A model generated the notes under the pieces. That model was not told the DNA's origin, did no database searches, and saw only the letters and a program-made list of their open reading frames with translations. Shown here piece after piece: positions 32,611 to 33,498 of a DNA stretch of 64,000 bases; the first letter of the stretch is position 1, and the number at the start of each line of letters is the position of its first letter. A program made the position numbers and the translations under genes. The DNA comes from Escherichia coli (GTDB lineage: Bacteria > Pseudomonadota > Gammaproteobacteria > Enterobacterales > Enterobacteriaceae), in the NCBI RefSeq assembly GCF_003334315.1, contig NZ_QOWR01000005.1; one strand, 5' to 3'.

Positions 32611-33498
32611 ATGGATCAAAAACAGATTGAAGAAATTGTACGCAGCGTGATGGCGTCAATGGGACAAACGGCCCCCGCGCCGTCAGAAGCAAAGTGCGCC
32701 ACCACCAACTGTGCGGCACCGGTGACCTCGGAAAGCTGTGCGCTGGATTTAGGTTCCGCTGAAGCAAAAGCGTGGATTGGTGTTGAAAACCCGCATCGCG
32801 CAGACGTATTAACAGAACTGCGCCGCAGCACCGTGGCCCGCGTTTGTACCGGTCGTGCCGGTCCGCGTCCACGTACCCAGGCGCTGCTGCGTTTCCTGGC
32901 CGATCACTCTCGTTCGAAAGATACCGTACTGAAAGAAGTGCCGGAAGAGTGGGTGAAAGCGCAGGGCTTGCTGGAAGTACGCTCTGAAATTAGCGACAAA
33001 AATCTCTACCTGACTCGCCCGGATATGGGCCGCCGCCTGTGTGCAGAAGCTGTTGAAGCGCTGAAAGCACAGTGTGTTGCTAATCCGGACGTACAGGTCG
33101 TTATTTCTGATGGCCTGTCAACTGATGCCATCACCGTCAACTACGAAGAGATCCTGCCGCCGCTGATGGCGGGCCTGAAACAGGCCGGGCTGAAAGTCGG
33201 CACGCCATTCTTTGTTCGTTATGGTCGCGTGAAGATTGAAGATCAGATCGGTGAGATCCTCGGCGCGAAAGTGGTGATCCTGCTGGTGGGGGAACGTCCG
33301 GGGTTAGGGCAGTCAGAAAGCCTCTCCTGCTACGCCGTTTACTCGCCGCGTATGGCGACCACCGTTGAGGCCGATCGCACCTGTATCTCTAACATTCACC
33401 AGGGCGGCACGCCGCCGGTTGAAGCCGCAGCCGTCATTGTGGATTTGGCGAAACGTATGCTGGAGCAGAAAGCATCCGGCATCAACATGACCCGATAA
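32611..33498 (+). CDS. eutC: Ethanolamine ammonia-lyase small subunit EutC
   Basis: 295 aa; N-terminal amphipathic helix then Ala/Pro-rich linker before the catalytic domain. Confidence 0.93.

Follow-up and report, generated by a model that had tools for sequence, protein, structure and literature searches.

[quoted passage not shown] The peptide lies within the window (a 64,000-nucleotide stretch of Escherichia coli DNA, contig NZ_QOWR01000005.1) at 32611..32667 on the + strand, and the assignment draws on its helical moment, an AlphaFold model, its conservation and published tests. The peptide is not new: earlier work characterised it using the very same sequence. The present analysis establishes its sequence, its amphipathicity, the predicted layout of helix, coil and domain, its conservation and its operon context; sufficiency, necessity and EutQ binding rest on literature that used the identical peptide. 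Both the necessity and the EutQ-binding experiments were done in Salmonella, and I infer that the mechanism is unchanged in the present E. coli strain. The peptide matters since it places the first enzyme of ethanolamine catabolism inside an organelle containing toxic acetaldehyde, ethanolamine catabolism in this organelle has been linked to gut colonisation by enteric bacteria, and the EutC peptide is in wide use as a tag with which foreign enzymes are loaded into engineered protein compartments.

The eutC gene and the layout of its product

The eutC gene (32611..33498, + strand) encodes the small (beta) subunit of ethanolamine ammonia-lyase, 295 aa in length, and is 100% identical at the nucleotide level to annotated E. 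coli eutC. Its product belongs to the EutC family (PF05985 / NF003971), exceeding the curated threshold with 339.6 bits against NCBIfam NF003971 (cut-off 230), a model that matches residues 52-294 alone, and the PDB chains 5ysn_B and 3abo_B align to it at E about 1e-192 with the single difference A20T. The protein letters that the initial annotation gave for the N-terminus agree exactly with the translation of 32611..33498 (+). The 2.9 kb around the gene are E. coli chromosome, being 100% identical to several complete genomes, and this region is present in 5394/5426 E. coli genomes. An in-frame TAA at 32602-32604 stands two codons upstream of the ATG at 32611, so this ATG is the first possible eutC start and a longer N-terminus is excluded; the RefSeq start is identical, the full-length chains 5ysn_B and 3abo_B open with the same residues as the translation, and direct reading of the sequence finds a Shine-Dalgarno-like GGAG (32597..32600, + strand) 10 nt upstream of the ATG. 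The start codon at 32611 is secure. An antisense open reading frame over the eutC start (32609..32872, 87 aa, GTG) was set aside as a mechanical one, and RefSeq annotates nothing there.

According to the annotation and NCBIfam, the eut operon is uninterrupted and complete in the order eutS-P-Q-T-D(pta)-M-N-E-J-G-H-A-B-C-L-K-R. Directly upstream of eutC, with 20 nt between its end and the eutC start, lies the large-subunit gene eutB (31229..32590, + strand; NCBIfam NF011649 at 664.7 bits), whose product has no encapsulation peptide of its own. Five shell genes belong to the operon, namely eutS (21005..21340, + strand, from annotation and translation), the annotated eutM (24348-24641) and eutN (24748-25035), and eutL and eutK, which follow directly downstream of eutC (33508..34680, + strand; annotation, NCBIfam EutL at 401 bits, and translations), and the annotation also places the published adaptor gene eutQ at 21807..22496 (+ strand). 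A cryptic prophage is inserted within the eut operon in some K-12 derivatives such as BW25113 (PMC11334477); here eutA and eutB (29814-32590) are adjacent, with a gap of 11 nt, and the operon is thus uninterrupted at this junction. An Rfam scan of the eut region (20000-36500) returned no RNA families. Outside the operon, maeB (18432-20711) is an intact open reading frame of 759 aa; the genome that best matches the eutBCL region, that of strain W5-6, has it annotated as frameshifted, so either the window stems from a different assembly or the W5-6 assembly contains an error.

Within EutC, an amphipathic helix is predicted at residues 3-18 with a hydrophobic face made of I6, I9, V10, V13, M14 and M17. 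Residues 4-17 have an Eisenberg helical moment of 0.608, the highest among all 14-residue windows of the 295-aa protein and maximal at 100 degrees per residue, with a shuffle p of 0.009, or 0.012 when the maximum over windows is taken; the N-terminal amphipathicity is genuine and exceeds what chance would give. A 60-sequence alignment (A1) underlies an AlphaFold model that likewise has a helix at 3-18 (pLDDT 82-89), lacks secondary structure over 19-49 (pLDDT about 49-52 over 21-40), climbs in pLDDT from 72 to 90 across residues 41-62, and is confident in a domain that begins at about residue 50 (pLDDT above 90). The amphipathic helix that the initial annotation had proposed is thereby borne out both by the moment (p about 0.01) and by the model. 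Three further parts follow the peptide, all on the + strand: a hypervariable flexible linker at residues 20-40 (32668..32730), delimited by conservation, pLDDT and composition; a conserved lead-in to the domain at residues 41-62 (32731..32796), which includes Cys43 and is delimited by identity, pLDDT and a construct boundary; and the catalytic EutC domain at residues 52-295 (32764..33495), delimited by the NCBIfam match, pLDDT and conservation. The crystallisation construct 3any_B aligns from EutC residue 44, and the 20-40 linker falls within its missing part.

The linker had been described as rich in Ala and Pro, a description that holds as far as it goes, in that these two residues make up 36% of residues 20-47 and 15.6% of the catalytic part (p = 0.007); the segment is better described as rich in Ala, Thr, Pro, Ser and Cys (71% vs 29%, p = 3e-6), and it is poor in large hydrophobic residues. 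The hypervariable stretch seen in Enterobacterales stops exactly at the proposed end of the linker, 32730 (residue 40), and the predicted unstructured part reaches to about residue 49. The first residue beyond the 19-mer used in published tests is T20 in the window (codon 32668-32670) and A20 in K-12 and the PDB chains, a substitution that is probably neutral, lying as it does in a high-entropy column of the hypervariable part. Cys43 (32737-32739) sits within the conserved block after the linker (32731-32796) and is found in 94/97 Enterobacterales representatives, compared with 65/97 for C34 and 26/97 for C29; three cysteines within 15 residues are unusual for EutC, and any role for the conserved Cys43 or for a Cys-rich linker is speculative.

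Conservation, the hydrophobic motif and shell genes among EutC homologues

For the close-range comparison, clusters at 90% identity supplied 97 representatives complete at both ends; the clusters with organism names are Escherichia, Salmonella, Klebsiella, Yersinia, Serratia, Pluralibacter, Phytobacter and Entomohabitans. Mean identity to the window across these 97 sequences is 93.4% for residues 1-19 (46 representatives being identical there), falls to 31% for residues 20-40, where the linker is between 14 and 33 residues long, and then rises to 84% for residues 41-62 and 90% for the catalytic part. The 19-residue tag is, as judged from these alignments, more strictly conserved than the enzyme that carries it, and the linker is nearly free to vary. 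If this study adds one observation to what was known, it is that in Enterobacterales the tag is held more strictly than the catalytic domain and the next 21 residues are almost unconstrained. Among the homologues, clusters P0205, P0207, P0214, P0216 and P0220, four of them named E. coli, have EutCs of merely 255-269 aa; P0205, P0207 and P0214 keep both peptide and linker in the N-terminal alignment, and must therefore be shortened elsewhere.

A long-range search through 1.84 billion cluster representatives, from which 94 full-length matches were retained, extends this picture to distant EutCs. The length preceding the catalytic domain is bimodal, with 30 residues or fewer in 36 matches and 45-121 residues in 53. 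Among these 53 extension-bearing EutCs, 31 have the strict h-xx-hh-xx-hh motif starting at residues 3-11, whereas composition-preserving shuffles lead one to expect 0.97, and control windows give 10/651 in the catalytic domain and 0/41 in the linker (Fisher p = 3e-31). The N-terminal motif is thus enriched about 30-fold over chance, at a fixed position, and many of the remaining extension-bearing EutCs fit it if Ala is allowed at one position. The equivalents of I6, I9, V10, V13, M14 and M17 in alignment A1 are hydrophobic in 100, 96, 93, 82, 100 and 78% of 45 distant homologues, respectively, and the columns between them are polar and highly variable. The window EutC spells out the motif as I6-xx-I9 V10-xx-V13 M14-xx-M17, in a form common to other encapsulation peptides. 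Taken together, EutC has the features by which encapsulation peptides of bacterial microcompartments (BMCs) have been described (Kinney 2012; Aussignargues 2015), i.e., a terminal position on an enzyme encoded in a shell-gene locus, an alpha-helix of about 15-20 residues predicted to be amphipathic, a linker that is poorly conserved and in which small and hydrophilic residues abound, and the common hydrophobic motif. The targeting arrangement suggested in the initial annotation is accordingly present in every part: the helix, the poorly conserved linker, the enzyme domain and the microcompartment operon.

These patterns bear on the objection that the N-terminal segment plays no part in targeting and is an incidental tail, for example one that is amphipathic by chance, binds membranes, or serves solubility or regulation. 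Its proponents could point out that without residues up to 43 the enzyme retains enough catalytic competence for crystallisation with cofactor analogues (PDB 3any and relatives), and that some shell-linked EutCs have no tail. However, chance or solubility would have to account for a peptide more conserved than the catalytic domain and for a motif about 30-fold enriched in distant homologues, and published deletion and fusion experiments already refute an incidental role (PMC12487888, PMC3299773), which leaves this reading barely conceivable next to that of an encapsulation peptide.

The tailless EutCs deserve a closer look. Genomic context was taken for six extension-bearing and six short EutCs, and the loci were searched with the window's shell proteins; context was uninformative at L010 (1.2 kb) and on the P0051 contig, and several other contigs are short. 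A EutL homologue adjoins eutC in 5/5 informative extension-bearing loci (L002, L003, L004, L008 and L009). Among the five informative short-EutC loci, a shell gene is found in two (L012 and L007), and the search with the window's shell proteins found none in L005, L006 and L011. The resulting comparison, 5/5 with the extension vs 2/5 without (one-sided p = 0.083), is a small sample that runs in the hypothesised direction and is not significant. In a published survey, the extension was found in 123/125 EutCs from BMC loci, aligned against 22 EutCs from organisms without shell genes (PMC4594438).

At L012 (9477-10467, EutC P0046) there is no extension and immediately after eutC comes a EutL-like open reading frame (53% identity over 60 aa, E = 2e-13), and at L007 (1645-4607, EutC P0018), also without an extension, a BMC-H-like open reading frame stands at the contig end (E = 3e-4), along with a PduO-type adenosyltransferase and a EutJ-like gene. 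The short starts are genuine, given the stops upstream at L007 and the overlap of eutC with the eutB end at L012, and since both EutCs stand beside shell genes without a peptide, the peptide on EutC is not universal. Another homologue, P0064 (333 aa), has at residues 8-50 a module that resembles residues 2-47 of the window EutQ (33% identity, pairwise E = 1e-4); it stands where the amphipathic peptide would be, and its EutQ counterpart corresponds to the published shell-binding helices 1 and 2. Pfam recognises the EutC domain of P0064 and not this N-terminal module, and a 69-aa open reading frame after eutC at L007 (2497-2706) contains a motif that, judged by eye, is seemingly similar to it. 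A module of this type may link the enzyme straight to the shell and make the adaptor superfluous, although I consider it improbable that the relay from peptide to EutQ to shell is just one among several means of attaching ethanolamine ammonia-lyase to a shell.

What the peptide binds

The function of the peptide has been tested by others in considerable depth. Choudhary et al. showed that the identical 19-mer, EutC1-19, carries EGFP and beta-galactosidase fusions into native Salmonella Eut compartments and into recombinant shells (Choudhary 2012, PMC3299773), and in E. coli W3110 a EutC1-20-GFP fusion gives puncta against a strong background in the cytosol (PMC11334477), which means that targeting by EutC1-20 alone is incomplete. 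The reporter fusion that the initial annotation had put forward as a check has, in other words, already been published with the same sequence. The same annotation held that its reading would fall if the first 20 residues were dispensable and not conserved; deletion of eutC codons 2-19 in Salmonella leaves EutB cytosolic and abolishes growth on ethanolamine (Yang 2025, PMC12487888), and conservation across Enterobacterales, as described above, is higher in the peptide than in the catalytic part.

With regard to the binding partner, EutC1-20 binds EutQ with a Kd of 6.35 uM, ITC and NMR locating the contact at EutQ residues 63-99, and binding is lost with EutQ L89A and V93A (PMC12487888). EutC I6, V10, V13 and M14 contact EutQ V93, L89, E64, R67 and Q75 (PMC12487888), and in the window EutQ all five of these contact residues (E64, R67, Q75, L89 and V93) are found at those positions. 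EutQ contacts the EutC peptide with its helices 3 and 4 and the shell with its helices 1 and 2, and EutQ truncations part cargo from shell in native Salmonella compartments (PMC12487888); the published binding region, EutQ helices 3 and 4 (residues 62-99), is encoded at 21990-22103 on the + strand of the window. The receptor known now is EutQ, instead of or besides a shell protein. The sequence of events would then be that EutC residues 1-19 fold as a short amphipathic helix with I6, I9, V10, V13, M14 and M17 on one face, that a linker of about 20-30 residues, whose sequence would be free to vary, spaces this helix from the enzyme, and that the hydrophobic face docks on EutQ helices 3 and 4; with the N-terminal helices of EutQ bound to the shell, the EutB-EutC complex would be recruited during assembly of the Eut microcompartment. 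EutB would ride in passively on EutC, a piggy-backing that has been described (PMC4594438), and the helix, being dual-purpose, would also promote clustering of cargo with cargo.

The receptor question is not fully closed, because an earlier study in recombinant E. coli named EutS, and not EutQ, as the protein both necessary and sufficient for capture of EutC1-19-EGFP; the concentration of the fusion was lost with EutS G39V (PMC3299773). One could thus propose that the peptide binds a shell protein directly, either EutS or a BMC-H protein at its C-terminal helices or hexamer interfaces, on the model suggested for PduP with PduA/J, and that the EutQ adaptor is unneeded. That EutS alone concentrates the fusion and G39V abolishes this speaks for such direct binding; shell-binding models for encapsulation peptides have also been reviewed (PMC4594438), and eutS is in the window. 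However, the EutS result comes from a single over-expressed shell protein, and the truncations of EutQ that split cargo from shell in native Salmonella, the binding of EutC1-20 to EutQ 63-99 and the effects of L89A and V93A (PMC12487888) argue for an adaptor, which makes it rather unlikely that direct shell binding is all there is. The EutS and EutQ routes are mutually compatible and do not exclude one another.

A different proposal, somewhat less doubtful than direct shell binding and still one I hold only tentatively possible, is that the helix is mainly a self-association or condensation module that forms a pro-metabolosome core, with shell enclosure secondary and no specific receptor contact required. 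It is known that the EutC peptide drives self-association of cargo: fused to mNeonGreen it gives condensates and fibril-like clusters (PMC12339742), EutBC-sfGFP aggregates at the cell pole when the compartment is absent (PMC12487888), and peptide-bearing enzymes aggregate on heterologous expression and are soluble once the peptide is removed (PMC4594438), in keeping with a crystallised construct that lacks residues up to 43. Yet the EutC peptide condenses more weakly than the PduD and PduP peptides (PMC12339742), and its specific, saturable binding to EutQ, with the expected stoichiometry and with point mutants, indicates a defined receptor (PMC12487888). Self-association and receptor docking are probably both real and complementary, as the preferred reading of a EutQ-docking, cargo-clustering peptide would have it.

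Sister peptides and known systems

The window itself contains a second such peptide, on the aldehyde dehydrogenase EutE (MNQQDIEQVVKAVLLKMQS; 25047..25103, + strand), which was brought out by pairwise comparison with the EutC N-terminus at 41% identity over 27 residues (pairwise E = 1e-4). Its function has been shown in Salmonella, where it binds the same EutQ region as the EutC peptide (PMC12487888), and it has the same h-xx-hh-xx-hh spacing (I6, V9, V10, V13, L14 and M17) at the same position; it differs in the enzyme that carries it, in a lower published affinity for EutQ, and in a helical moment that is 0.43 here as compared with 0.61 for the EutC peptide. The N-terminus of EutG (MQNELQTALFQAFDTLNLQ) was considered as a third peptide and rejected, its helical moment being not above chance (p = 0.22), and GFP targeting with EutG fusions has failed (PMC12487888, PMC3299773). 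The mechanical eutG open reading frame opens at a GTG nine codons upstream (27260-27286) of the annotated ATG at 27287, and the family model aligns from residue 10.

Beyond the Eut system, CcmN of beta-carboxysomes similarly recruits shell through a short amphipathic helix attached via a linker, but this helix is C-terminal, sits on a non-enzymatic assembly factor and is aromatic-rich (PMC4594438), and unlike the EutC peptide it does not self-condense (PMC12339742). Closer in kind are PduP, PduD and PduE of the Pdu microcompartment, which share with EutC an N-terminal amphipathic helix of about 18 residues, a poorly conserved linker (PMC4594438) and the triggering of cargo condensation (PMC12339742), and which differ in belonging to another organelle and other enzymes and in their proposed partners, the shell proteins PduA/J/K rather than EutQ. 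The closest comparison of all is with the EutC1-19 and EutC1-20 peptides of Salmonella enterica LT2 and E. coli K-12 (Choudhary 2012; Jallet 2024; Yang 2025), in which residues 1-19 are identical to those of the window and the gene, the operon order, the EutQ contact residues and the layout of linker followed by domain are all the same. The present EutC differs from that of K-12 in the linker only (T20 vs A20), its linker also differs from that of the Salmonella-named cluster P0159, and no functional difference from the known EutCs is expected from these changes.
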